Source: Candidatus Nomurabacteria bacterium (GTDB taxonomy: Bacteria > Patescibacteriota > Minisyncoccia > Phycocordibacterales > UBA9973). Taken from it: 64,000 bases of DNA. Positions 2,806 through 55,052 of the stretch are shown here, piece after piece. A program made the position numbers and the translations under genes. The stretch spans positions 294,606 to 358,605 of the forward strand of contig CAWHSF010000003.1 of the NCBI GenBank assembly GCA_963832025.1. Direction: 5' to 3'. The notes below the pieces were generated by a model. It was not told the DNA's origin. It searched no databases and worked only from the letters and a program-made list of their open reading frames with translations. Numbering within the stretch: position 1 is the stretch's first letter; every line of letters starts with the position of its first letter.

Positions 2806-3075
2806 ATGAGCTCAATCATCAAAAACCCAAGAGTTACCGAAAAGGCTTCATTTGCCGCCGAACAAAATGTTTACACTTTTGATATTTCGCAATCTGCAAA
2901 CAAAAGAGAAATCAAAAAAGCTGTCTTTACTCTTTATAAAGTGCATCCAGTAAAAGTAAATGTTATGACTATTCCAAGAAAGAAAACAATGTCCCAGGGA
3001 AAGAAGGGCATGCGTGGTGGAGGAAGAAAAGCTTTTGTATATTTAAAAAAGGGAGATAAAATAGAATTTATATAA
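2806..3075 (+). CDS. rplW: 50S ribosomal protein L23 (upstream ATG at 2782 lies inside palindromic repeat, so 2806 preferred)
   Basis: SSIIKNPRVTEKASFAAEQNVYTFDISQSANKREIKKAVFTLYKV L23 signature. Confidence 0.88.
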   Translation: MSSIIKNPRVTEKASFAAEQNVYTFDISQSANKREIKKAVFTLYKVHPVKVNVMTIPRKKTMSQGKKGMRGGGRKAFVYLKKGDKIEFI

Positions 3076-3914
3076 TGAAAACATACAAACCGACAAGCAA
3101 ATCAAGAAGGCAAATGACCAATGTGAGCTACAGGGGAGTTTTGAGCAATACCACACCCACCAAATCCCTGACCCATGGTTTTAAAAGAAACGTCGGTCGC
3201 AACAGCCAAGGACGTATCACCATGCGCCACAAGGGAGCCGGACACAAGCGCTTGTATCGAGACGTCGATTTTATTTACAATAAAAAAAACATTCCTGCAA
3301 AAATAGTTTCTGTAGAATACGACCCAAATCGTTCCGCATTTATCGGTCTGGCAGTTTACAAAGACGGAGAAAAAAGATACGTCGTATTGCCGAAATCAGT
3401 CAAACCAGGCGATTCTTTTGTCGTTTCCGAAAAAGCCGAACTAAAACCGGGCAACAGACTCCCTTTGCAATTTATTCCGGTCGGAACTTTTGTTTACAAT
3501 GTTGAAATCAAACCGATGGGTGGCGCAAAGATCGGACGCTCTGCAGGAATTTTCGCCCAAGTTGTCGCAAACGCCGACGGATATACAAATATTAAAATGC
3601 CTTCTACGGAAATTCGCAAAATAAACGAAAAGTGCTGGGCTTGCGTCGGAACTGTTTCCAACGAGGAACATCACTTGGAGAATTATGGCAAGGCAGGACG
3701 CAGTCGCTGGAAAGGAATTCGTCCGACAGTTCGCGGAACAGCTATGAACCCAGTAGACCATCCATACGGCGGAGGTGAAGGACGCCAAGGGCGCGGAACC
3801 AAAAGACCAAAGACTATGTGGGGTAAAGTTACCGGCGGACGTAAAACCCGCGGACCAAAGAAATACTCGAACGTCTTTATTGTTTCTCGCCGAAAAACAG
3901 GAAAGAATAAATAG
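3075..3914 (+). CDS. rplB: 50S ribosomal protein L2
   Basis: GRNSQGRITMRHKGAGHKRLYR...GTAMNPVDHPYGGGEGRQ L2 signature. Confidence 0.95.
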   Translation: MKTYKPTSKSRRQMTNVSYRGVLSNTTPTKSLTHGFKRNVGRNSQGRITMRHKGAGHKRLYRDVDFIYNKKNIPAKIVSVEYDPNRSAFIGLAVYKDGEKRYVVLPKSVKPGDSFVVSEKAELKPGNRLPLQFIPVGTFVYNVEIKPMGGAKIGRSAGIFAQVVANADGYTNIKMPSTEIRKINEKCWACVGTVSNEEHHLENYGKAGRSRWKGIRPTVRGTAMNPVDHPYGGGEGRQGRGTKRPKTMWGKVTGGRKTRGPKKYSNVFIVSRRKTGKNK

Positions 3915-3955
3915 TTCGACGAACTCACTACAAGTAAAAAATAATAATACTTAAA

Positions 3956-4012
3956 ATTGGGACGTCGGACACCTGCTTTAGCAGATGTCCGACGTCTGGA
4001 GGTTTATGCACT
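3956..4012. repeat. palindromic repeat family A, copy A2 (island left border)
   Basis: GACGTCGGACACCTGCTTTAGCAGATGTCCGACGTCTGGAGGTTTATGCAC. Confidence 0.8.
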
Positions 4013-4098
4013 TGTGTAATTTTGCATAAATGTTATAAATGCATTCATATAGTTCTATTCATTCTGGCTTCATAATCCACTCAGAGGAGTGTTACACC

Positions 4099-4290
4099 TT
4101 GAAAGAAAGTGCCACAGTACTTCGCAACAACAACCAAAAGGCGGCCGTTGCGGCCAAGGTGTTTAAGGGGGGCGTTCAAAAACCCCAAAGACAAGATGTT
4201 GCTGCTGACATTCGTCGGCAGTGGGGCAAACCGAGTCACAGCAAAAGTCGCAACTGGCGTTGGGGAGTGGCGCTGGCTGGCATTGCATAA
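4099..4290 (+). CDS. hypothetical small basic protein (~63 aa, TTG start after GAGGAG RBS); first cassette of S10-operon island
   Basis: RBS gaggag 8 nt upstream of TTG; preceded by TTGCAT-17-nt-TATAAA promoter-like unit; followed by hairpins 4296-4360. Confidence 0.25.
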   Translation: MKESATVLRNNNQKAAVAAKVFKGGVQKPQRQDVAADIRRQWGKPSHSKSRNWRWGVALAGIA

Positions 4291-4451
4291 ATAAAGACAG
4301 CCGGAGCTGTCTAAAGAAAGGAGGGAAGGGCGTCGGGATTAACTCGGCGCCCTCTTTACATTTACTTGCATTGTCATAAATAAATGTTATAAATAAAAAC
4401 GAATTCGTAATTAGTGAGCTACGGATAGTAGCTCGCTTTGGGAGAGAAGAA

Positions 4452-4649
4452 ATGGCCAACAGAGGTTCAGCAGTTTTACCGCATCGTAAGCAAGTGAAAA
4501 CCACCATGACAACCTTGCCCCGGCAAACACAGGAACCAGATGTTGTGGAAGAGATCATCGGTCGAGTTTTTCACGGCGGACACAAGCCACAACTTTATCC
4601 ACCCAATCCACGACAACAGCAAGCAGCCGAAGAATCTGCAGAAGAGTAG
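4452..4649 (+). CDS. hypothetical 65-aa protein (second island cassette)
   Basis: ATG preceded by GGGAGAG RBS, own promoter-like TTGCAT..TATAAAT at ~4368-4398, strong terminator 4663-4715. Confidence 0.35.
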   Translation: MANRGSAVLPHRKQVKTTMTTLPRQTQEPDVVEEIIGRVFHGGHKPQLYPPNPRQQQAAEESAEE

Positions 4650-4662
4650 ATCGAATTTCAAC

Positions 4663-4715
4663 GGGCGGGGAGTCGATGTTTCGACACCCCGCCCGCATTT
4701 GCGTTTACTCGATTT
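4663..4715 (+). terminator. intrinsic terminator after 65-aa ORF
   Basis: GGGCGGGGagtcgatgtttcgacaCCCCGCCC + T-rich tail. Confidence 0.6.
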
Positions 4716-4728
4716 TAATATTTTATTT

Positions 4729-4780
4729 CCAGACGTTGGACATCTGCTAAAGCAGGTGTCCAACGTCAGTCCAACGTCTC
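4729..4780. repeat. palindromic repeat family A, copy A3
   Basis: CCAGACGTTGGACATCTGCTAAAGCAGGTGTCCAACGTCagtCCAACGTCTC. Confidence 0.8.
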
Positions 4781-4929
4781 TTCACTTTTGTATTCTTGTG
4801 TTATATTTTTTGTATGGTATAAATATAAGTAGAACTAGTTCCTGCCGCCTAGCAGGGAGGCGGTACAACCTCAAAGCAAAAAAAACAAAGTGGATGCGTA
4901 AGCACACGTAAGCCATTGAGGGTCAGGTA

Positions 4930-5109
4930 ATGCAGAAAGAAGTAAACAAAAAAGCTGATTTGTCTACGACGCCTGTCGTCAAGGTTTCCAGTAGCATCGA
5001 ACCGGTTGGAGCAGCAGAAGCAGCAGGGACATACTGCATCGTGTTCGCTCCGCCGGAAAACCGGAAACCGCGGAACTTGATCGTGTACGACAATCGAGGC
5101 CACTACTAA
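4930..5109 (+). CDS. hypothetical 59-aa peptide MQKEVNKKADLSTTPVVKVSSSIEPVGAAEAAGTYCIVFAPPENRKPRNLIVYDNRGHY (below ORF-track cutoff)
   Basis: GAGGG RBS 8 nt upstream of ATG; upstream promoter-like TGgTATAAAT ~4803-4815 and 5'UTR hairpin; intrinsic terminator 5120-5176 immediately downstream. Confidence 0.45.
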   Translation: MQKEVNKKADLSTTPVVKVSSSIEPVGAAEAAGTYCIVFAPPENRKPRNLIVYDNRGHY

Positions 5110-5119
5110 AGTGGCCACA

Positions 5120-5176
5120 GGGGTTCATCGGCAAGCCAGCTGATGAACCCCACCGTTATTTTTACCCGATTTTTTA
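5120..5176 (+). terminator. intrinsic terminator after 59-aa peptide gene
   Basis: GGGGTTCATCggcaagccagctGATGAACCCC + TTATTTTTaccCGATTTTTT. Confidence 0.65.
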
Positions 5177-5195
5177 TAATTTTAAATTGCGAAAC

Positions 5196-5223
5196 TTGCT
5201 TTTATTTTAAAGTATGTTATACT
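5196..5223 (+). promoter_or_regulatory. sigma70-like promoter TTGCTT-16-TATACT driving candidate sRNA
   Basis: -35 5196-5201, -10 5218-5223. Confidence 0.4.
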
Positions 5224-5229
5224 TTATGG

Positions 5230-5420
5230 TAGATAGCTCCTCCGTGCTTTTTGTGGAGGCCTGTCTCCTGGCAATTCGTGAGTGGCTCCTCCACTCCTCA
5301 GGAGTTGAGCGCTTTGGCAACACTCTGCGGATGCTAGGTTGTAACATTGCTCCATTTTTCTATTCTCCTTGGGTCTGAATTCGGGTTTTGCCTCCCGTAA
5401 TATCAGACCCTATTTTTTTT
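5230..5420 (+). ncRNA. candidate ~190-nt structured sRNA of unknown family inside S10-operon island
   Basis: No ORF; own promoter; multiple nested hairpins (CCTCC/GGAGG, GAGTGG-ctcct-CCACTC, CCTG..CAGG); ends in GGGTCTGA...TCAGACCC stem plus T8 terminator 5371-5420. Confidence 0.4.
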
Positions 5421-5433
5421 ACCTAATTTTTAC

Positions 5434-5511
5434 TTGACCCGGTAGTAGAACTTTGCGATATGTAAAATTTGCATCAAAGATGCGTCGCAAAGTCTCACTA
5501 CTGGGTTGACT
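5434..5511. repeat. repeat family C copy C1 (long hairpin TTGACCCGGTAGTAG...CTACTGGGTTGAC; 3' end = -35 box)
   Basis: ttgacccggtagtagaactttgcgatatgtaaaatttgcatcaaagatgcgtcgcaaagtctcactactgggttgact. Confidence 0.8.
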
Positions 5512-5533
5512 TTTCAATACTTTGTGCTATGAT
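5506..5533 (+). promoter_or_regulatory. promoter TTGACT-16-TATGAT; -35 box contributed by 3' end of repeat C1
   Basis: -35 5506-5511, -10 5528-5533, followed by GGAG RBS and ATG 5556. Confidence 0.5.
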
Positions 5534-5555
5534 ATTAGAGAAGGAGATTTGCACC

Positions 5556-5792
5556 ATGTCGACCCAAGCAACAAAGGAGCGGGTTGGCCCGTTCCTCTTA
5601 ATCGGTTCCCTGTTTGCGGTGCCGATAGGTCTAGCGTTCTTTTACGAGGGTTTCAAAATCCAGGGAGACACATTACTGTCCCCGTCAAAGCTGACATGCT
5701 TTGTAGCTGGCGGGCTAATGGCTCTCTTCGGCATCATCTTTTGCTGGAGACACAACAACGACGGGAGGTTGGACAATGAAAGGTGGCGCTAG
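5556..5792 (+). CDS. small 2-TM membrane protein (78 aa), paralog of following ORFs
   Basis: GGAG RBS; two hydrophobic helices; internal similarity CFVAGGLMALFGIIFCW ~ FWVPGSLLALVGGIYLLY in next ORF. Confidence 0.5.
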   Translation: MSTQATKERVGPFLLIGSLFAVPIGLAFFYEGFKIQGDTLLSPSKLTCFVAGGLMALFGIIFCWRHNNDGRLDNERWR

Positions 5793-5976
5793 GAGGGGTA
5801 CTAGTTTCAACGTGGGTGCTGCAGTTGCGGCGGTGGCGCTCGCGATGGTAGTTTTCATCCACGACGATGCCGCCAAAAGCGCCCCTGACTTTATCGTCAG
5901 ATTTTGGGTGCCTGGTAGCCTCCTAGCTCTTGTGGGAGGAATCTACCTGCTCTACCGCCTCATCGTTCACAAGTGA
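5776..5976 (+). CDS. small 2-TM membrane protein (66 aa), overlaps previous ORF, paralogous
   Basis: RBS-like aggagg; hydrophobic; terminator 5990-6036 downstream. Confidence 0.45.
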   Translation: MKGGARRGTSFNVGAAVAAVALAMVVFIHDDAAKSAPDFIVRFWVPGSLLALVGGIYLLYRLIVHK

Positions 5977-5989
5977 TCGTTTTCACAGA

Positions 5990-6036
5990 CCGGTACCTGC
6001 GCAAAGACGCGGGGCCGGTTTTCGCTTTTTATTTAA
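5990..6036 (+). terminator. intrinsic terminator (repeat D copy 1)
   Basis: accggtacctgcgcaaagacgcggggccggttttcgctttttattt. Confidence 0.55.
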
Positions 6037-6039
6037 TTT

Positions 6040-6067
6040 GACTTTCTTGGATTTTATGCTATGATCT
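6040..6067 (+). promoter_or_regulatory. promoter TTGACT-16-TATGAT (near-copy of 5506 promoter incl. gaggagat RBS)
   Basis: -35 6040-6045, -10 6062-6067. Confidence 0.5.
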
Positions 6068-6083
6068 TCTTGAGGAGATCTTT

Positions 6084-6551
6084 ATGACAACAACAAGGTT
6101 CGGAGGTTCTCTCTGCATCGGTAGAGAGGAACTTGTAATAGCTGCGGTGTTTGTTACCATGGGCTTGGCCTGCCGTGTATCGACAAAAAGCAGTCGTGAA
6201 GCTGCCACAATGGTAATTGTGGTGGGGGTAGTCGCATTGTTAGCCTTACTATGGCAGGGGGTGAGAAAGGCCATTTCCTCCATTCTTCTCCCAACGTGGC
6301 GTGTGGTACCCAGGTTCGCAATCGCTTCGTGGAAGTTTGCGAGGAAGGGTCCGCGATACTGGATTCAGATTGCGGCGGTTGGGCTAATCTTCATCGGGGC
6401 TTTTGTCCTTGTGAGGTTGGATTTCAGCAAAGGAACGTCACTGGCGACGCTCCTTTCTCAAGTGTTAGCGAGCTTCTCTATACTTATTGGAGCGGGTTCG
6501 TACGTTTATTGTATAGGAGTGTTCAAGTTTCCAAACAGGTCCCAAGAGTAA
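6084..6551 (+). CDS. 4-TM membrane protein (155 aa), looks like tandem fusion of the 2-TM unit
   Basis: gaggagatctttATG RBS; 4 hydrophobic helices; terminator 6570-6617 is a copy of the 5990-6036 terminator. Confidence 0.55.
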   Translation: MTTTRFGGSLCIGREELVIAAVFVTMGLACRVSTKSSREAATMVIVVGVVALLALLWQGVRKAISSILLPTWRVVPRFAIASWKFARKGPRYWIQIAAVGLIFIGAFVLVRLDFSKGTSLATLLSQVLASFSILIGAGSYVYCIGVFKFPNRSQE

Positions 6552-6569
6552 ATCGTTTCGTTTCAATTC

Positions 6570-6617
6570 GACCGGCACCCGCGCAAAGACGTGGGGCCGG
6601 TCTTCGCTTTTTATTTT
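6570..6617 (+). terminator. intrinsic terminator (repeat D copy 2)
   Basis: accggcacccgcgcaaagacgtggggccggtcttcgctttttatttt, ~90% identical to 5990-6036. Confidence 0.55.
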
Positions 6618-6736
6618 GAATATGCTATGTTTCTCAGTAGGATAGTTCTTTTGGAGAGCGGTCTCCTGACAGGAACTATCTCGTGTGATAACGGGCTCTA
6701 AGCGTTTAAGCGCGTCCGTTACCACACATTCCGCAA

Positions 6737-6780
6737 CCGGGAGCCAGCTGCTTTTGGCAGGCTCCCGGTCTTTTTATTTT
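6737..6780 (+). terminator. intrinsic terminator closing the island
   Basis: ccgggagccagctgcttttggcaggctcccgg + T-run. Confidence 0.6.
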
Positions 6781-6839
6781 ACGTGAAAAAATGGTTTTTT
6801 TATTTCAGCTTTTCGGAATAAGGGCAATATAAAATCTAG

Positions 6840-6868
6840 TTGACAATTTTTCCTTATTTGCTACTATG
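6840..6868 (+). promoter_or_regulatory. internal promoter TTGACA-17-TACTAT re-initiating the r-protein operon at rpsS
   Basis: -35 6840-6845, -10 6863-6868, 28 nt upstream of rpsS ATG. Confidence 0.5.
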
Positions 6869-6896
6869 AAACCAAGCTCGTAGCGAGCTTTTTATT

Positions 6897-7247
6897 ATGA
6901 CTCGAAGTATCAAAAAAGGATTAAATGTCGACGAAAAACTTCTCTCAAAGATTGTGGGCAAAAACCCGCTCGAGACACCAATGGTAAAAACTTGGAAAAG
7001 AGCCTGCGTCATTTCTCCGGAGATGCTGGGTTTTACTTTTGGTGTGCATAATGGCAAAACCCATGTGGAAGTTTTGGTGACCGAAGATATGGTCGGGCAC
7101 AGACTCGGAGAATTTTCCCCAACCAAGAAATTTATTAAACACGGAGGAAAGATGCAGAAAGAGCTTGAACAGAAGAAAAAAGAAGCGGAGATTACTGCTG
7201 CCAAAGGTGCGACAGCGGCTGCCGAAGATGCTAAGGGTAAAAAGTAG
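6897..7247 (+). CDS. rpsS: 30S ribosomal protein S19 with ~25-aa Lys/Glu/Ala-rich C-terminal extension
   Basis: RSIKKGLNVDEKLL...HNGKTHVEVLVTEDMVGHRLGEFSPTKKF S19 signature. Confidence 0.93.
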   Translation: MTRSIKKGLNVDEKLLSKIVGKNPLETPMVKTWKRACVISPEMLGFTFGVHNGKTHVEVLVTEDMVGHRLGEFSPTKKFIKHGGKMQKELEQKKKEAEITAAKGATAAAEDAKGKK

Positions 7248-28156: not shown

Positions 28157-28173
28157 CTCCGCTACAATATTTG

Positions 28174-28563
28174 GGGATGCAAGGCATAGACAGTTGGCCT
28201 ATTTGCATTGATGCATACCGAGTATGAACATAATCTCGTAAAAATTTGTTCAACAGCTAATTGCAAAATCAGCTTTTACAGCAATGCTTTCGCCTTACTT
28301 CGGTAATTCGTTAGCTCTTGCTCCAGCTTTCGCGTAAGCCAAGGTTGGTGTCTCTCGTATAGACTTCCGATATATACGTAGAGGCATAATATTATCGGGA
28401 TAGGGAAGAAGACCGCTCTGACTTTTTTCCAAAACAAAAGAGCTCGATTAAAAAATATTTGGCTCGTTTAAGAATTTTTTAATTTAAAACAAAAAGCGAG
28501 CTACGTATGTAGACTTCTCTGCTATAACCTTCTGCACTGGGATTCAATTTCCCACATCTCCAC
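28174..28563 (+). ncRNA. ssrA: tmRNA (transfer-messenger RNA), one-piece
   Basis: Adjacent to smpB; 5' GGGGAUG pairs with 3' CAUCUCC+A (G3:U wobble = Ala identity); T-arm UGGGA-UUCAAUU-UCCCA; PK1 region GAUGCAUACCGAG...CUCGUAAAAA resembles E. coli GGUGCAUGCCGAG...CUCGUAAAAA; candidate tag ORF GCA(28263)...SLALAPAFA-UAA(28337); -10 TACAAT at 28164. Confidence 0.75.
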
Positions 28564-28609
28564 AATTTTTTTATTTTACTACCATTGTTTTTGATGGTAT
28601 TATTTTAAT

Positions 28610-31178: not shown

Positions 31179-31252
31179 CCGTCCTTAGCTCAGCTGGTTA
31201 GAGCACAGAGCTTATACCTCTGGGGTCCTTGGTTCGAATCCAAGAGGACGGA
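31179..31252 (+). tRNA. tRNA with anticodon UAU (Ile2-type AUA decoder), C1:G72 acceptor end
   Basis: Cloverleaf: acceptor CCGUCCU/AGGACGG, D GCUC/GAGC, anticodon stem CAGAG/CUCUG loop CUUAUAC, T CUUGG-UUCGAAU-CCAAG. Confidence 0.75.
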
Positions 31253-39277: not shown

Positions 39278-39364
39278 CGGAGAGAGAGGGATTCGAACCC
39301 TCGGTCCTTTTAAGGGGACGACAGTTTAGTAAACTGTTGGTTTAAACCACTCACCCATCTCTCC
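39278..39364 (-). tRNA. type-II (long variable arm) tRNA, Ser-like, anticodon loop UUACUAA (apparent ACU anticodon, atypical)
   Basis: rc: GGAGAGA-UG-GGU..ACC-A-ACAGU-UUACUAA-ACUGU-long arm-CGAGGGUUCGAAUCCCUC-UCUCUCC-G. Confidence 0.6.
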
Positions 39365-49701: not shown

Positions 49702-50954
49702 TTTCCTAATGCATTATGGTAAACTTCCTCTAGTTTTTTTACACTCTCGTGTATATCATATTTTTGAACCATCTTGAAGCTAACCTCACCCATCCTCTCT
49801 CTCAATTCTTTGTCTTGAATTAATTTCAAAGTTTGCTCGGCTAGGTCTTTAGGATCCAAGGTTTTAAACAAAAATCCGTTGCCATTCACAAAATAACGGG
49901 AAGCGCTCATTTTTGTATCGGAAATAATAATCGGTTTTCCACAAGCCATCGCTTCAAGCACCACCATACCTTCCAGTTCCGCGAGCGACGGCAAAATAAA
50001 AATATCGCAGGCATTAAAAGCCAAGATTTTATCTTCTTCACTGACCAATCCTAAAAAGGTGATATGTTTTCGCATTTTTAGATTGTCCACTAATTTTTCT
50101 AATTTATTTCGCAAGATTCCACCGCCCGCAATCATTAGATACACATTAGGATTTACTTTGAGTATCTCTGGTATTGCTTTGATGAGTGTATCCACGGATT
50201 TTTCCGGGAACAGACGCCCGACGAAAAGCAATTTTATTTTATCTTTCGGTATTTCAAATCTTTCGTAAAAATTTCCAATTGGAAATTTCTGAAAATGTTT
50301 CAAATTTATTCCATTGCTGATGACAATCGATGGCTGGTCACGCTTGTTTAATTTATGTAGCAGATTTTTTGCCATTTCGGAGGGATAGATTATTATTTCT
50401 GCTTTACTGTAAACCCACATCAGATATTTGTTCCATAAGCTAAATAAAATGGGCTGAATAATATGGGGGGTGTCGGCAAATAAATTTTCCGGTTGCGAGT
50501 GCGAATGCGCCACGATTTTTATATGAAGTGCTCGCGCTGCTTTGATGGCGACAACCGCTCCCGACATTGGCAGAATAATATGCACGATGTTTATTTTTTC
50601 TTCCAGAAAAACTTTTTTTAATTCATTCACTGTCGGAAAGGCTAAATGCCAGCCGTTTGATTTAGGAATAGGAATACTGCGATAATGATAAAGCCTGATG
50701 CCATCGTAATAATCGTTGTTCGCGTGTTCCTTAGAGGTTGCTCCGACAAAAATGACATGATGTCCTTGTTCTTTTAATAATTTGGAAAATCGCAAAATAG
50801 ACACAAGCACTCCGGCTTTGTCTCCGCCAATCGGGTCGCAAATCATCGCGATATTCAATTTCCCGGTAGTAGATTTTTGCAATGCAAGTTTACTTGCGCG
50901 CTCTGCGCTTTGCGAAAACTCACTACCGGGTTTTCCTCTTTTTTCTTCAGGCAT
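49698..50954 (-). CDS. GT4-family glycosyltransferase
   Basis: EGMVVLEAMACGKPIIISD (EX7E motif), two Rossmann halves. Confidence 0.85.
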   Translation of the reverse strand: MPEEKRGKPGSEFSQSAERASKLALQKSTTGKLNIAMICDPIGGDKAGVLVSILRFSKLLKEQGHHVIFVGATSKEHANNDYYDGIRLYHYRSIPIPKSNGWHLAFPTVNELKKVFLEEKINIVHIILPMSGAVVAIKAARALHIKIVAHSHSQPENLFADTPHIIQPILFSLWNKYLMWVYSKAEIIIYPSEMAKNLLHKLNKRDQPSIVISNGINLKHFQKFPIGNFYERFEIPKDKIKLLFVGRLFPEKSVDTLIKAIPEILKVNPNVYLMIAGGGILRNKLEKLVDNLKMRKHITFLGLVSEEDKILAFNACDIFILPSLAELEGMVVLEAMACGKPIIISDTKMSASRYFVNGNGFLFKTLDPKDLAEQTLKLIQDKELRERMGEVSFKMVQKYDIHESVKKLEEVYHNALGK

Positions 50955-50955
50955 T

Positions 50956-51537
50956 TTATTTTTGATCGTTGGGCGGAACTGTTCGCATATTAAATTTATA
51001 TTTTCGTAAAAAGATGACTACGAGAAAAATCAAAGCGAGAACACTGACAAATGCCGCGTAATAATTCAAATATTTGCCGATTACCACGTAAGCATGTCCG
51101 AATAAAATTCCCAACATCAACATGACAAATGATTGGATGACGGAAATCGTCGCGCATGTCTTGAAATATTTTTTATACGGCACACGGATGGCGCCGGCGG
51201 CGACTAGTCCGGTAAAGCCGATGCCGTGTACGAGTTTGCTCATGGCGATGGCTTTTTTGTGATTGTCTCGAAAATATAATTTTGCTTTTTCCAGCTTCTC
51301 GTCCGTGACCTTGAAATATTTTAAAAATCTTTTCCCCGAATAACCCATGTAATAAATCAATCCATCACCGACGATGTCACCCAAAACCATGACAACATAG
51401 ACTAAAAACGGATTGAAAAATTTCAATGTCACCAAAAATCCGCAAATGACCGTAACGATTGGTCCTTCAATAATAGACAAGGGGATTAGAATAATATATT
51501 TATAGGTCAACAACAGTTGAATCATATATGAGAACAT
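50956..51537 (-). CDS. DedA/SNARE-associated family membrane protein
   Basis: 193 aa, VLGDIVGDGLIYYMG, DedA topology. Confidence 0.8.
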   Translation of the reverse strand: MFSYMIQLLLTYKYIILIPLSIIEGPIVTVICGFLVTLKFFNPFLVYVVMVLGDIVGDGLIYYMGYSGKRFLKYFKVTDEKLEKAKLYFRDNHKKAIAMSKLVHGIGFTGLVAAGAIRVPYKKYFKTCATISVIQSFVMLMLGILFGHAYVVIGKYLNYYAAFVSVLALIFLVVIFLRKYKFNMRTVPPNDQK

Positions 51538-51565
51538 TATATGGTATTTTAATGTTTTACCTACT

Positions 51566-51593
51566 ATTGACTTTTGTCTATTTTCTGGTATAT
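51566..51593 (+). promoter_or_regulatory. promoter TTGACT-16-TATATTGTAAA (copy 1)
   Basis: -35 51566-51571, -10 51588-51593. Confidence 0.45.
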
Positions 51594-51689
51594 TGTAAAG
51601 GAATTTCAGGTTCTATCGCAAGTTTTTTGACGAGTTTCTTGACATCAACCGAGCAAATTTTGCTCTCAACCGCTTTTCAGGAGATACCC

Positions 51690-52262
51690 ATGACGCATAA
51701 CTTTTTGGAGGGAATCTTGTGGATTCTTTTCTTCCTGGGGCCGCTGGGAACTATGGCCGCTCTCTGGGTTTTGCTACTAGCCGTTCCGGTCGGTCGCCGA
51801 ATCCTCGAAGGGAAAAGCTACGATGTTTCCCTCGCCTCAAACTACGGGGATAAGGGTCTGACGCTTATTGCGCTAATTGGCGCGTACATTATTTCGTTTC
51901 ACCAACCCATCTTCGTCCCGGCTTGGTTGCGAGACGGAGATGTTCACAGCGCGATCTACTTCGTGGCATTGATGTTTTGCTTCATCATCAGCGCTTTCAC
52001 CTTCAAAAAAAGAGAAGCAAACTTTGTGGATGTGTTCCGCGACGTGGTGATTGCGCCGGTGTTCATTCTCATGATAATCGTCGTTGTGCCTGTCATTTAC
52101 CTGAACGGCACATGGTTAGAAAAATCGGTAACAGTTACCTGTCTTATGCTTTGGGGGGTGCTGGGGGTTGTTGACCTTGTGACCGGCAGATTTAACCAGC
52201 AGCAATGGATGAGACAGCAAGAACAAAAACGTCAAGATAGGAGGCACTTCATCTTTTCTTGA
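51690..52262 (+). CDS. polytopic membrane protein, paralog A (start 51690 after cAGGAGatacccATG)
   Basis: ~5 TM; shares VIAPVFILMIIVVVPVIYLNGTWLEKS block with paralog B. Confidence 0.6.
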   Translation: MTHNFLEGILWILFFLGPLGTMAALWVLLLAVPVGRRILEGKSYDVSLASNYGDKGLTLIALIGAYIISFHQPIFVPAWLRDGDVHSAIYFVALMFCFIISAFTFKKREANFVDVFRDVVIAPVFILMIIVVVPVIYLNGTWLEKSVTVTCLMLWGVLGVVDLVTGRFNQQQWMRQQEQKRQDRRHFIFS

Positions 52263-52263
52263 C

Positions 52264-52378
52264 TGGTCCAGCTAGAGAACCGAAATTTCCAGCAGCGCAT
52301 CGGGCGAGATGTAGTGAATGTCTTGCCCACGAGCCCTGAAGCAGAAATCAGCTTTCAGGGTTTTTGTTTTGCCATTTT
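52264..52378 (+). terminator. ~115-bp direct repeat E1 containing two hairpins and T-run
   Basis: CGGGCAAGA..TCTTGCCC and CCCTGAAGC..GCTTTCAGGG+TTTTTGTTTT; near-identical to 53053-53168. Confidence 0.6.
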
Positions 52379-52401
52379 TATAAATATTTTCCTGAATTAC
52401 C

Positions 52402-52430
52402 ATTGACAAATGACGTATTTTCTGCTATAT
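52402..52430 (+). promoter_or_regulatory. promoter TTGACA-17-TATATTGTAAA (copy 2)
   Basis: -35 52402-52407, -10 52425-52430. Confidence 0.45.
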
Positions 52431-52517
52431 TGTAAATGAGTGTTCTGTAACAAAAGCAGATTTTTTCTCAATCGGGAGGAAAAATTTTGCTCCACAACCT
52501 ACCTTGAAGGAGGTCCC

Positions 52518-53051
52518 ATGTTAATTTTTCGGTTGCTCACAGTGTCGCCCATCTGGATGACAGCATTTGTGTTGTATATCGGTACCATCGGCGTGCTGTT
52601 TGTCTTGCGAGATAAGTGCGAGGGACTGTATTATCAAACCTCGTACTCGGCCCAGCTCGGCGATGGCGGACTGATTGTCATCGTGCTTATGGTCGCCGAG
52701 ATTCTGAAGCAGGGCGCATCCATGCCGACATGGCTACAGAGTAATTGGTATCACGCAATGGCCATTGTCGTCGCAGTAGCACTTGGATTGGTCTGGGTGT
52801 TTCGGGGTCACCCCAAGGAGTGGGCCGACTATTACCACCATCTCGTGATAGCGCCGTTACTATGCTATTTCGGTGTTACCCTTGTGCCAGTAATTTACCT
52901 GAATGGCACAAGAGGAGAGAAAGAATCCACAATCCTTCTCGTGCTTTTCTGGGCATTGCTGTGCTGGTACGATGCGACCGCCCACCGCCTTGACCAGCGG
53001 AATTATCACTTACTGGGAGAACATCTCGATGAGATGATGCGGGAGGGCTAA
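52518..53051 (+). CDS. polytopic membrane protein, paralog B (start 52518 after GAAGGAGGtcccATG)
   Basis: shares HLVIAPLLCYFGVTLVPVIYLNGTRGEKES block with paralog A. Confidence 0.6.
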   Translation: MLIFRLLTVSPIWMTAFVLYIGTIGVLFVLRDKCEGLYYQTSYSAQLGDGGLIVIVLMVAEILKQGASMPTWLQSNWYHAMAIVVAVALGLVWVFRGHPKEWADYYHHLVIAPLLCYFGVTLVPVIYLNGTRGEKESTILLVLFWALLCWYDATAHRLDQRNYHLLGEHLDEMMREG

Positions 53052-53052
53052 A

Positions 53053-53168
53053 ACAAAGTCCAGCTGGAGACTTAGAAACATCTAGCACATCGGGCAAGAT
53101 GTAGTGAATGTCTTGCCCACGAGCCCTGAAGCAGAAATCAGCTTTCAGGGTTTTTGTTTTGCCATTTT
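53053..53168 (+). terminator. direct repeat E2 (copy of 52264-52378)
   Basis: same two hairpins + T-run. Confidence 0.6.
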
Positions 53169-53178
53169 GAAATAATTT

Positions 53179-53883
53179 CTAATGCGCCACGGTGAAAGCT
53201 ATTACTTTTCGCGCGCCGGACTTTTTCAAAGTCCGGCGCGCTTCGTTCAAGGTCGCGCCGGTGGTGGTTATATCGTCTATCAAAATTATATTTTTCTTTT
53301 TGATTAGCTCCTCATTTTTTACGGCAAACGAGCCAACGATATTTTTTAATCTTATACTTCGGTCCTTGATGCGCGCTTGATGTTCGGTGTCCTTGGGTTT
53401 AATTAAAATATTGTTTGCAAGAGTAAATGTCATATTTCGCCCCTCTCCAAAAAAGGTTTTTGGAGAGGGGTTGGGGGTGAGGTTTTGTCTTTTTGATATT
53501 CTTACCAACTCCCGACAAATCAATTCCGCTTGGTTGAACCCGCGTTCACGGTATCTCTTGGCCGAAAGGGGAATAGGAATTAAAATCGGATTATTAAAAT
53601 TCTCCATGAGAGAAAGTTCCGAAAGCTCTTGCAGAATATTTTCATAAATATTCTCCGCAAAAATATTCGCCAATCTTTTCTTACCACTATATTTTAGAAG
53701 CCACAAAGATTTTTTGATAACCGGATGGCGATAATCATACAAAGGAAAAATCCATGTCGCGCTTTCACGTTCAGCTGTTCCCACTTCGGCCAAGCAAGTG
53801 CTACATAAATTTATCCCACTTTTACCGCAAGAAATACATTTTGGCGGGAACACTATATCCAATATGGTGTTTAAAAACCGCAT
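53179..53883 (-). CDS. comF: ComF-family phosphoribosyltransferase (competence protein ComFC-like) carrying in-frame palindromic-repeat insertion
   Basis: N-terminal CxxC..CxxC double zinc ribbon, C-terminal PRTase ILIDDITTTGAT; repeat F5 at 53437-53484 encodes NLTPNPSPKTFFGEGRN. Confidence 0.8.
   Translation of the reverse strand: MRFLNTILDIVFPPKCISCGKSGINLCSTCLAEVGTAERESATWIFPLYDYRHPVIKKSLWLLKYSGKKRLANIFAENIYENILQELSELSLMENFNNPILIPIPLSAKRYRERGFNQAELICRELVRISKRQNLTPNPSPKTFFGEGRNMTFTLANNILIKPKDTEHQARIKDRSIRLKNIVGSFAVKNEELIKKKNIILIDDITTTGATLNEARRTLKKSGARKVIAFTVAH
53437..53484. repeat. repeat family F variant F5, located inside comF coding sequence (in frame)
   Basis: tcgCCCCTCTCCaaaaaaggtttttGGAGAGGGGttgggggtgaggtt. 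Confidence 0.7.
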
Positions 53884-53912
53884 TTATGGTATAATTTTAG
53901 CACAGATATTAT

Positions 53913-55052
53913 ATGAATAATAAAAATTTGCTGAAAAATCTTTTGGCGAGCTTTAATAAGGGGAAGGGCGGAGATAGTGCTGTCGGCGTTGATATAGGGT
54001 CTTCGGCAATCAAAGTAGTTGAGATAAAAAGAAAAGGAGGTAAGGCAGTGCTAGAGACTTACGGAGCGATAGAGCTCGGTCCTTATGGTGACATGGATGC
54101 TGGACGTGTTACAAATTTGCCGATTGATAAAATTGTTTTAGCTTTAAAAGAAGTTCTCAAGCAGTCCAGCGTAGAGAATACTTCTTTGGCCATGTCGATT
54201 CCCATTCAATCAAGTTTGATTTTTACTATTGAGCTTCCAGAAACCGTCGGCGATACTGAAATAGCTGCCATTGTCCCCACTGAAGCTCGCAAATATATTC
54301 CAGTTCCGATTACCGAAGTTTCAATTGATTATTTTGTGTTACCCAAAAAAGAAGCTTCTTTTTCGGAAATGAATGCTGAGCCAAGCAGTGCCGATAAAGC
54401 TAAAGCGCAGACAGAAAAAATAAATGTTTTGGTAATTGCTACGCAAAACGATGCCGTGGCAAAATATCGTTCAATTATTTCGCAGTGCAATTTTGATGCT
54501 TCCTTTTTTGAAATTGAGATTTTCTCTTCTATTCGCGCAAATTTTGAGCACGAATTATCGCCAGTCTTACTGGTGGACTTTGGCGCATCTCGCACCAAGC
54601 TTTCGATTGTTGAATTTGGTTTGGTGAAGACCTATCACACGATAGACAGAGGCGGAGCTGATATTTCCAATTCTATCGCGCAGTCTTTAAATATTTCTTT
54701 TACCGAAGCCGAAAAAATGAAAAAGGAGTTTGGGTTTTTTGAAAATCCGGCGGAAAAAAGTTTGAGTGACATCATTAAAATTCATATCAATGATATTTTT
54801 TCCGAGACCAATAATGTTTTGTTGGGATATGAAAAGAAATATAACCGCACTATCAGTAAAATCATATTCACCGGAGGAGGTTCGCTCTTAAAAGGGCTGA
54901 AAGAAGTTGCAGCCAATAATTTTCAAACAGAAATAGAAGTCGGTCGTCCATTTTCCAAAGTCGGTGCACCGGAGTTTTTGGAAAAGGTTTTAGATACCAT
55001 GGGGCCGGAATTTGCCGTTGCTCTCGGACTCGCACTACGAAAATTGCAATAA
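53913..55052 (+). CDS. pilM: type IV pilus assembly protein PilM (actin-like ATPase)
   Basis: VGVDIGSSAIKVVEI... actin fold; precedes pilN/pilO. Confidence 0.85.
   Translation: MNNKNLLKNLLASFNKGKGGDSAVGVDIGSSAIKVVEIKRKGGKAVLETYGAIELGPYGDMDAGRVTNLPIDKIVLALKEVLKQSSVENTSLAMSIPIQSSLIFTIELPETVGDTEIAAIVPTEARKYIPVPITEVSIDYFVLPKKEASFSEMNAEPSSADKAKAQTEKINVLVIATQNDAVAKYRSIISQCNFDASFFEIEIFSSIRANFEHELSPVLLVDFGASRTKLSIVEFGLVKTYHTIDRGGADISNSIAQSLNISFTEAEKMKKEFGFFENPAEKSLSDIIKIHINDIFSETNNVLLGYEKKYNRTISKIIFTGGGSLLKGLKEVAANNFQTEIEVGRPFSKVGAPEFLEKVLDTMGPEFAVALGLALRKLQ

Follow-up and report, generated by a model that had tools for sequence, protein, structure and literature searches.

The window analyzed in this study is a stretch of 64,000 nt from contig CAWHSF010000003.1 of a Candidatus Nomurabacteria bacterium and contains two adjacent genes (hereafter A and B) that encode small membrane proteins of the same family. 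The locus probably consists of two old, resident paralogs with flanking elements that occur throughout the family, combined with a short gene conversion of the 3′ tail. The original prediction had described the pair as amplifying foreign cassettes, and in this respect the locus can be cleared as a false lead. What is new here is an undescribed candidate cis-RNA motif and an uncharacterized membrane-protein family. The genes that define the locus are:

50956–51537, minus strand: dedA-like gene (VTT domain), divergent neighbor and left anchor of the conserved slot
51690–52262, plus strand: gene A (ATG at 51690, stop codon at 52260–52262), 190 aa, predicted five-helix membrane protein
52518–53051, plus strand: gene B (ATG at 52518, stop codon at 53049–53051), 177 aa, predicted five-helix membrane protein
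53179–53883, minus strand: comF-like phosphoribosyltransferase gene, convergent neighbor and right anchor of the slot
53913–55052: pilM, beyond comF

Age and genomic context of the gene pair

Proteins A and B are 30% identical over 176 residues (E = 3e-22) in an alignment that includes the shared block VIAP..VPVIYLNGT, which confirms the original description of the genes as tandem paralogs. Both open reading frames (ORFs) have a good Shine–Dalgarno site, the genes are adjacent and in the same orientation with matching unit boundaries, and each appears to be an autonomous promoter–leader–coding sequence–terminator unit with shared flanks. The proportion of differing synonymous sites (pS) is 0.69 and the identity at third codon positions 35%, indicating that synonymous sites are saturated. 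Judged by their sequences, A and B are old paralogs and not the product of a recent amplification. Among the family representatives, A is 47% identical to P0124 and 38% to P0065, as against 30% to B, and a word-indexed search returned no close homolog of A; it appears to belong to a different, faster-evolving subfamily than B.

The closest relative (L020; the compared loci are numbered with the prefix L) contains a second, independent tandem pair, with a B-type gene first and then another family member under a promoter of its own; the identity of this paralog is 29% with A, 36% with B and 47% with P0123. Orthology between A and this second paralog was considered and rejected based on the 29% identity and the different closest subfamilies. 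In L049, dedA is 78% identical to that of the window and the dedA-adjacent gene is another A-like member with 38% identity. The arrangement differs by genome (A then B in the window, B then a P0123-type gene in L020, a P0065-type gene beside dedA in L049), indicating that several subfamilies coexist and are differently ordered beside dedA or B.

A single-copy family gene is located beside a comF-like gene followed by pilM-pilO-T2SSE in every longer contig, and in most loci the PAP2_C-hydrolase-GT4-dedA block lies on its other side, as in the window. Exceptions to this slot are L003, with a P-type ATPase upstream, and L008, with dedA downstream of the family gene. Overall, the dedA–gene–comF-pilM slot is kept in at least 10 Paceibacterota genomes, and the identities of the neighbors to the window proteins (50–79%) track those of B (49–64%); in L010, for example, the identities are 78% for GT4, 76% for DedA, 60% for B and 65% for ComF. 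B is best described as the vertically inherited, syntenic ortholog of the single-copy slot gene, and the locus as a set of resident Paceibacterota genes rather than foreign cassettes. The family is held in a fixed place between an envelope/lipid cluster and competence/type IV pilus genes.

The homologs of B comprise 29 unnamed proteins with 46–65% identity, and their named sources are all Paceibacterota or Patescibacteria. A profile search of 1.84 billion representatives extended the family to 310 clusters, nearly all of 140–250 aa. The family hidden Markov model scores A at 187 bits. A has FRD in place of the near-invariant YHH of the family and has also lost D32. An AlphaFold2 model of B based on a 31-sequence alignment (predicted local distance difference test score 92.5) displays five long helices and a C-terminal amphipathic helix. 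The family had no match in Pfam, NCBIfam or the PDB sequences and no fold match in PDB or BFVD, and a literature search found nothing relevant. The conserved polar residues are R31, D32, E35, Y39, S42, D49, D104, Y106, H107, H108, D152, R157, Q160 and R161; the invariant or near-invariant ones sit in loops 1–2 and 3–4 and after helix 5, all of which, by the positive-inside rule, would face the cytoplasm. This placement suggests a binding or catalytic site, and the neighboring GT4, PAP2 and dedA genes suggest, as a lead only, a link of the family to lipids or the cell envelope.

In several related loci, the family gene is followed in the same operon by small membrane ORFs (L001 4579–4776, L026 1077–1304, L033 1178–1345, L045 779–973, L046 983–1210 and L049 1370–end). 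There are one or two such partners per operon, mostly of 55–75 aa with two predicted helices, and three of these ORFs show weak mutual similarity (E = 7e-7 to 4e-4). The A and B units of the window are without such partners. A family of about 310 clusters of five-helix membrane proteins, with a confident predicted fold and without known relative, represents a lead in the poorly understood bacteria of the candidate phyla radiation (CPR).

The 85-nt tract shared by the 3′ tails

Each coding sequence is followed by a structured tail. The original prediction had described it as a two-hairpin terminator; a hairpin and a terminator are present, but a third element, a pseudoknot, had been missed. The proposed elements, all on the plus strand, are:

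52264–52293, plus strand: H-type pseudoknot of A, 1 nt after the stop codon; stem 1 UGGU/ACCG, loop 1 CCA, stem 2 GCUAGAGA/UUUCCAGC with one A–C mismatch (also predicted by RNAfold), loop 3 AAA
52302–52328, plus strand: hairpin 1 of A, predicted by RNAfold; GGGCGAGAU, loop GUAGUGAAU, GUCUUGCCC
52334–52378, plus strand: predicted intrinsic terminator of A; stem CCCUGAAGC..GCUUUCAGGG at 52334–52360, then U5GU4 and GCCAUUUU
53056–53086, plus strand: H-type pseudoknot of B, 4 nt after the stop codon; stem 1 AAGUC/GACUU, loop 1 CA, stem 2 GCUGGA/UCUAGC, loop 3 AGAAACA
53092–53118, plus strand: hairpin 1 of B; GGGCAAGAU, loop GUAGUGAAU, GUCUUGCCC
53124–53168, plus strand: predicted intrinsic terminator of B, ending 11 nt ahead of the comF stop codon (convergent gene)

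A comparison of positions 52294–52378 with 53084–53168, where the tract ends together with the terminator of B, revealed matches at 83 of 85 positions (98%), and the last 72 nt are identical. The 30–35 nt that precede this tract, which extend from the stop codon through the pseudoknot, show an identity of only about 61%, which reduces the 115-bp direct repeats of the original prediction to 85 near-identical nucleotides. Every adjacent segment of A and B shows 59–63% identity, and no copies of the 45-nt core of the repeat beyond these two exist in the window. Between genomes, orthologs included, the same 3′ element is 67–79% identical, a level that excludes selection alone as the cause of the 98% identity. 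The higher identity within the genome, together with the sharp edges of the tract, indicates that the 85-nt part containing the hairpin and the terminator was homogenized, presumably by a short intragenomic gene conversion.

The alternative that survives best, though we consider it unlikely, is that the A unit, with the −35 hexamer and the terminator tail as its two ends, arrived beside B fairly recently by recombination at conserved flanks, with the family-wide promoter and 3′ module providing the homology and another locus or a related strain as the source; the 85-nt near-identity would then be the footprint of that event and not of a later conversion. The left junction at the −35 hexamer fits this scenario: the sequence upstream of TTGAC has its orthologous counterpart in the dedA-proximal spacer in L010 and L020, and the sequence downstream is of the A type as in L045. 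Different subfamily members beside dedA or B in the window, L020 and L049, and the different neighbors of the A-type gene in the available sequence of L045, point in the same direction. However, a single crossover at the 3′ module would put the insert downstream of B and not upstream, the pseudoknot and leader of A are not B-like, leaving a very short visible exchange, and the analysis revealed neither a donor copy nor a circular intermediate nor a recombinase. The compared contigs are all short, and conversion and a recent recombination of the A unit are not separable on them.

RNA elements flanking the coding sequences

The pseudoknot was identified 12 times across 8 genomes and always on the sense strand; 11 instances start 1–11 nt after a stop codon and one overlaps the stop codon. 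The consensus consists of stem 1 (CGGUC/GACCG), a loop 1 of 1–3 nt, stem 2 (GCUnnnn/nnnnAGC, 6–8 bp) and an A-rich loop 3 of 3–8 nt; loop 2 is absent, with stem 2 directly abutting the 3′ strand of stem 1. The pseudoknots of A and B differ in both stems, and stem 1 of B departs from the consensus by two compensatory changes. The alignments that MAFFT produced were inconsistent with the pseudoknot structure, and hand-made alignments padded with N were used instead. In such an alignment of 11 instances, 98.4% of the cells are paired and 6 of 13 pairs change on both sides; none of 500 shuffles reached the observed pairing, and slid controls displayed 22–43% pairing. In related operons (L026, L033, L045/L046 and L049), a pseudoknot, accompanied in some cases by hairpin 1, is present after almost all cistrons for which the 3′ flank was readable, and a terminator follows the last cistron.

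Hairpin 1 was aligned in 13 loci, with 100% of the cells paired and changes on both sides in 8 of 10 pairs, and its loop GUARUGAAU is kept in the closest relatives of the window. For the terminators, RNAfold gives a 12-bp bulged stem followed by U5GU4; the stems of the orthologs covary and the tail UUUUCAUUUUGCC is kept. The whole 3′ tails of A and B fold with z-scores of −3.4 and −3.7, and the module had no Rfam family match in the window or in six related loci. A pseudoknot motif that lies just after stop codons, is repeated after successive cistrons and has no Rfam match represents a candidate RNA motif.

Two further observations concern the 3′ elements outside the window. The terminator hairpin of many orthologs (stem CCCUAAC..GUUAGGG) carries a perfect Shine–Dalgarno-like AAAGGAGGUGAU in its loop, often followed by AUG or GUG (L015, L016, L033 at 1411–1450, L039, L040, L020 at ~2620–2650 and L026 at ~1452–1490); the two terminators of the window are without this sequence. 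On phage contigs (L063 4615–4650 and about eight near-identical IMG/VR contigs), TGA is immediately followed by CGGUC-C-GCUGCCC-GACCG-AAAA-GGGACAGC, a pseudoknot-like sequence with the same design as the motif described here, which is a single anecdote. A pseudoknot scan of viral contigs was discarded as evidence: the matches (at least 120) are close to chance for 16 specified bases, and only about five independent matches have a fitting stem 2, where we estimate that about four are expected.

The elements predicted upstream of the two coding sequences are:

51567–51602, plus strand: promoter A; TTGACT-16-TATATT with TG extension, then GTAAA at the likely start site; 10/12 consensus
51603–51689, plus strand: 5′ leader A, ~88 nt; hairpin GAGCAA-AUU-UUGCUC at 51651–51665, flanked by CAACC (51646–51650) and UCAACC (51666–51671); Shine–Dalgarno GGAG at 51680–51683
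52403–52439, plus strand: promoter B; TTGACA-17-TATATT with TG extension; 11/12 consensus, the best in the region
52440–52517, plus strand: 5′ leader B, ~79 nt; hairpin at 52475–52493, then ACAACC (52494–52499); Shine–Dalgarno AAGGAGG at 52507–52513

The A and B promoters are the two top-scoring plus-strand promoter-like sites in positions 50900–54000, and the 21-mer TATTTTCTGSTATATTGTAAA occurs only at these two sites in 64 kb (0.03 expected). Near-identical promoters are present, as originally claimed, but their likeness is mostly family-wide conservation and not copy and paste: the B promoter shares 86% identity with its counterparts in the orthologs of L010 and L020 and 81% with the promoter of A, and the orthologs have TTGACAAAT..TATTTTCTGCTATAnT in common. 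The −35 element and the start of the spacer in A (TTGACTTTTGT) are those of the A-type ortholog in L045, and the −10 tract of A is B-like; a second short exchange may have covered the −10 region of A. The A-type operon of L045/L046 agrees with A in the start of the promoter, in the leader hairpin and in the 3′ module.

The leaders are somewhat shorter than the ~100 nt of the original prediction and contain one hairpin of 6–8 bp, located ~25–40 nt before the start codon, with (C)AACC before it in several loci and (A)CAAC(C) after it. The hairpin covaries in 7 loci with 98% of the cells paired. The suggestion that the leaders share a riboswitch-like fold found no support: they had no Rfam match at E ≤ 10, the whole-leader folds (z = −0.54 for A and −0.97 for B) are not significant relative to shuffled sequence, and one small hairpin is all they have in common. 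With no multi-helix aptamer, no Rfam class and a fold not above that of shuffled sequence, a riboswitch in the leaders was rejected; a simpler interpretation is a hairpin with a protein-binding or stabilizing role. The copy-pasted appearance of the two units follows from promoter, leader hairpin and 3′ module being family-wide.

Based on these predictions, each paralog would form its own transcription unit under a near-consensus extended −10 sigma-70 promoter, followed by an 80–90-nt leader with a hairpin, a Shine–Dalgarno site, the coding sequence and the pseudoknot–hairpin–terminator tail. At the end of each cistron, the pseudoknot–hairpin module would act in cis on the mRNA: when a ribosome is positioned on the stop codon or close to it, the pseudoknot would lie at the entry channel, and the module may influence termination, re-initiation or the stability of the upstream cistron. 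A more far-reaching reading, put forward tentatively and with the odds still against it, is that the module represents a new class of cis-acting CPR RNA at stop codons and that the five-helix protein and its two-helix partners form a new membrane complex. The module would then pause the terminating ribosome and couple termination to re-initiation on the next small cistron, or would serve as a sensor for an ion or a small molecule.

The preQ1-I and SAM-II aptamers and viral frameshift signals are compact pseudoknots that the module resembles, and it is conceivable, but improbable, that the pseudoknot (with or without hairpin 1) is a ligand riboswitch or a recoding signal for readthrough or frameshifting instead of a termination or stability element. 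Its compactness, A-rich loop 3 and G–C-rich stem 1 would suit such a role, the distance of 1–11 nt from the stop codon fits a recoding geometry, and in several operons the module lies directly before the Shine–Dalgarno site of a small ORF. Against this stand the lack of an Rfam match, of loop 2 and of invariant unpaired bases other than the A-run, together with the absence of a conserved in-frame extension (B stops again after 8 codons); the module also occurs before a terminator without a downstream gene, and no alternative pairing with the terminator was found.

Base composition, mobility and comparison with known systems

A recent tandem duplication, in which one coding sequence diverged extremely fast while strong purifying selection held the 3′ module and the promoter, is very unlikely. 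The genes are adjacent, identically oriented and share unit boundaries, and A-like genes do evolve fast (38% identity where dedA shows 78%). However, selection does not hold the 3′ element at 98% between orthologs (67–79%), the synonymous sites are saturated, A is closer to relatives in other genomes than to B, and the pseudoknot, which is presumably functional, is not kept between A and B.

The GC content of A and B is 48.9% and 51.5%, respectively, compared with 39.7% for the window; the elevation noted in the original prediction is real, but its values of 52–55% are too high. The GC content at third codon positions (GC3) is 0.60 in A and 0.62 in B, relative to a window mean of 0.365 (standard deviation 0.07). 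The same excess is found in orthologs relative to their own genomes (0.39 versus 0.22 in L001, 0.45 versus 0.28 in L005, 0.62 versus 0.23 in L034), and the GC3 of the family gene exceeds that of its neighbors by about 0.07–0.4 in almost every syntenic ortholog (L001–L042). The GC content of the family genes is ~0.43–0.57 while the host loci range from 0.32 to 0.64. The recurrence of the excess in orthologs points to a family trait and speaks against recent import, and at this locus an elevated GC content by itself is a poor import marker. Two other causes were considered and rejected: high-expression codon bias (EF-Tu and ribosomal-protein genes of the window have a GC3 of only 0.29–0.43) and hydrophobicity (other membrane ORFs have a GC3 of 0.34–0.47). 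A possible source is GC-biased gene conversion at a locus prone to recombination, and the excess across orthologs raises the question of whether the locus is a recombination hotspot.

The mobile, amplifying, GC-rich foreign cassette of the original prediction, related to an island in the S10 operon, is very improbable. The high GC3 values, the autonomous units with repeated flanks and the near-constant GC content of the family across hosts are compatible with it, as is the S10 island, where small membrane genes of high GC content also occur together with promoters of their own and a terminator that is repeated. The proposal is contradicted by synteny, since the position is kept in at least 10 genomes with a divergence that tracks that of the neighbors. 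In the window there are two copies only, with coding sequences saturated at synonymous sites. A foreign origin gains nothing from the database searches, where the family had no match in phage and plasmid collections, PADLOC or PHROGs; no integrase, transposase or other mobility gene adjoins the pair, and no attC-like or terminal-repeat features were found at the units.

The S10-operon island (window 3915–6896, GC ~0.5) lies between rplB (3075–3914) and rpsS (6897–7247). It contains small membrane ORFs (one ending at 5792, one at 5776–5976 of 66 aa, and one at 6084–6551 of 155 aa), a promoter-like TTGACT..TATGAT ahead of the first ORF and of the ORF at 6084, and a terminator GACCGGYACCYGCGCAAAGACGYGGGGCCGGT that is repeated at 5988–6019 and 6570–6601. 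The kinship between the two regions is limited to a similar unit layout: the genes of the island are homologous neither to the five-helix family nor to its small-ORF partners, and the pseudoknot was not found in the island.

An assembly artefact that joined two strains or alleles at the 85-nt repeat can be all but dismissed: the contig is metagenome-assembled and, on the A side, an independent Logan assembly is interrupted within the repeat, but the upstream flank of B contains the end of a terminator tail and a unique 20-nt junction, which places a family-type 3′ module before B in real DNA, A–repeat–junction–B–repeat–comF is the only linear path that uses all segments, the two nucleotide differences at the 5′ end of the tract remain associated with their respective copies, and L020 has an independent tandem pair.

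Several points weigh against resident old paralogs with family-wide flanks and a converted tail as the explanation. The conversion is read from the discontinuity in identity and was not observed, and a recent recombinational insertion of A would produce an identical pattern. Pure vertical descent does not account for the GC3 excess. The promoters, start sites and terminators are predictions, and a simple terminator scan did not list the bulged stems of A and B. The hand-fitted structural alignments with N padding favor the proposed pairs, and the scan pattern was taken from the same sequences, making its enrichment (14 versus 2.7) partly circular. Finally, the pseudoknot is present in 8 genomes only, and many orthologs have just hairpin 1 and the terminator.

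Other features of the window were noted in passing. The 3′ coding end of comF carries a perfect 14-nt inverted repeat (GCGCGCCGGACTTT/AAAGTCCGGCGCGC, window 53211–53241). A small palindrome, CCTCTCC..GGAGAGG, is present in five copies (16763, 21128, 26755, 28125 and 53442) with none expected by chance, and looks like a dispersed element of the repetitive extragenic palindromic (REP) type or of the miniature inverted-repeat transposable element type; the copy at 53442–53468 is inside comF (minus strand), where the translation reads PNPSP..GEG. A transfer-messenger RNA gene (28173–28565, 122 bits) and two tRNA genes (31179–31252 and 39278–39364) are the only Rfam gathering-level matches in the window.

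The RNA module, the unit layout and the paired genes can each be compared with known systems. The module shares with preQ1-I aptamers (RF00522) and with viral or insertion-sequence −1 frameshift and readthrough pseudoknots a size of ~30 nt, two stems, a short loop 1 and an A-rich loop 3 that could lie along stem 1, and it sits 1–11 nt past the codon at which a ribosome would pause. It differs from preQ1-I in its longer stem 2 (6–8 bp), in the lack of the ligand-reading C of loop 2 and in its position 3′ of a gene rather than in a 5′ leader, and the RF00522 covariance model did not match the module. It differs from frameshift and readthrough signals in having neither a slippery site nor a conserved extended ORF; the stop codons before the pseudoknot vary (TAA, TAG and TGA) and no downstream frame is conserved across the loci. 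REP elements and bacterial interspersed mosaic elements, for example in malE-malF of Escherichia coli, are intercistronic or 3′ stem-loops that stabilize the upstream mRNA. Like them, the module lies just after stop codons and recurs after successive cistrons, with a terminator at the end of the operon; unlike them, it is limited to the operons of one family instead of being dispersed across the genome, and it has an H-type pseudoknot that REP elements lack. Overall, the module shows the hallmarks of neither a preQ1-I aptamer nor a recoding signal, and it resembles REP elements in place only.

The two units resemble integron cassettes in that small ORFs in series are each followed by a repeated structured element of ~60–120 nt, as with attC. 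Integron cassettes are promoterless, whereas A and B have strong predicted promoters (10/12 and 11/12); in addition, the repeat of A and B is a hairpin with a U-tract terminator on the transcribed strand, no integrase is adjacent and the position is syntenic. The combination of tandem paralogs with conversion is, in contrast to the RNA motif and the protein family, ordinary. Short-tract gene conversion in bacterial tandem paralogs is known, for example, from tufA/tufB and from duplicated segments of rRNA operons, and A and B resemble such cases of concerted evolution as a same-strand pair with one segment at 98% identity and ~60% elsewhere. They differ in that the converted tract would be non-coding (85 nt), the coding sequences are saturated and the copies belong to different old subfamilies, and the locus would clearly illustrate how gene conversion can be restricted to a non-coding regulatory module.

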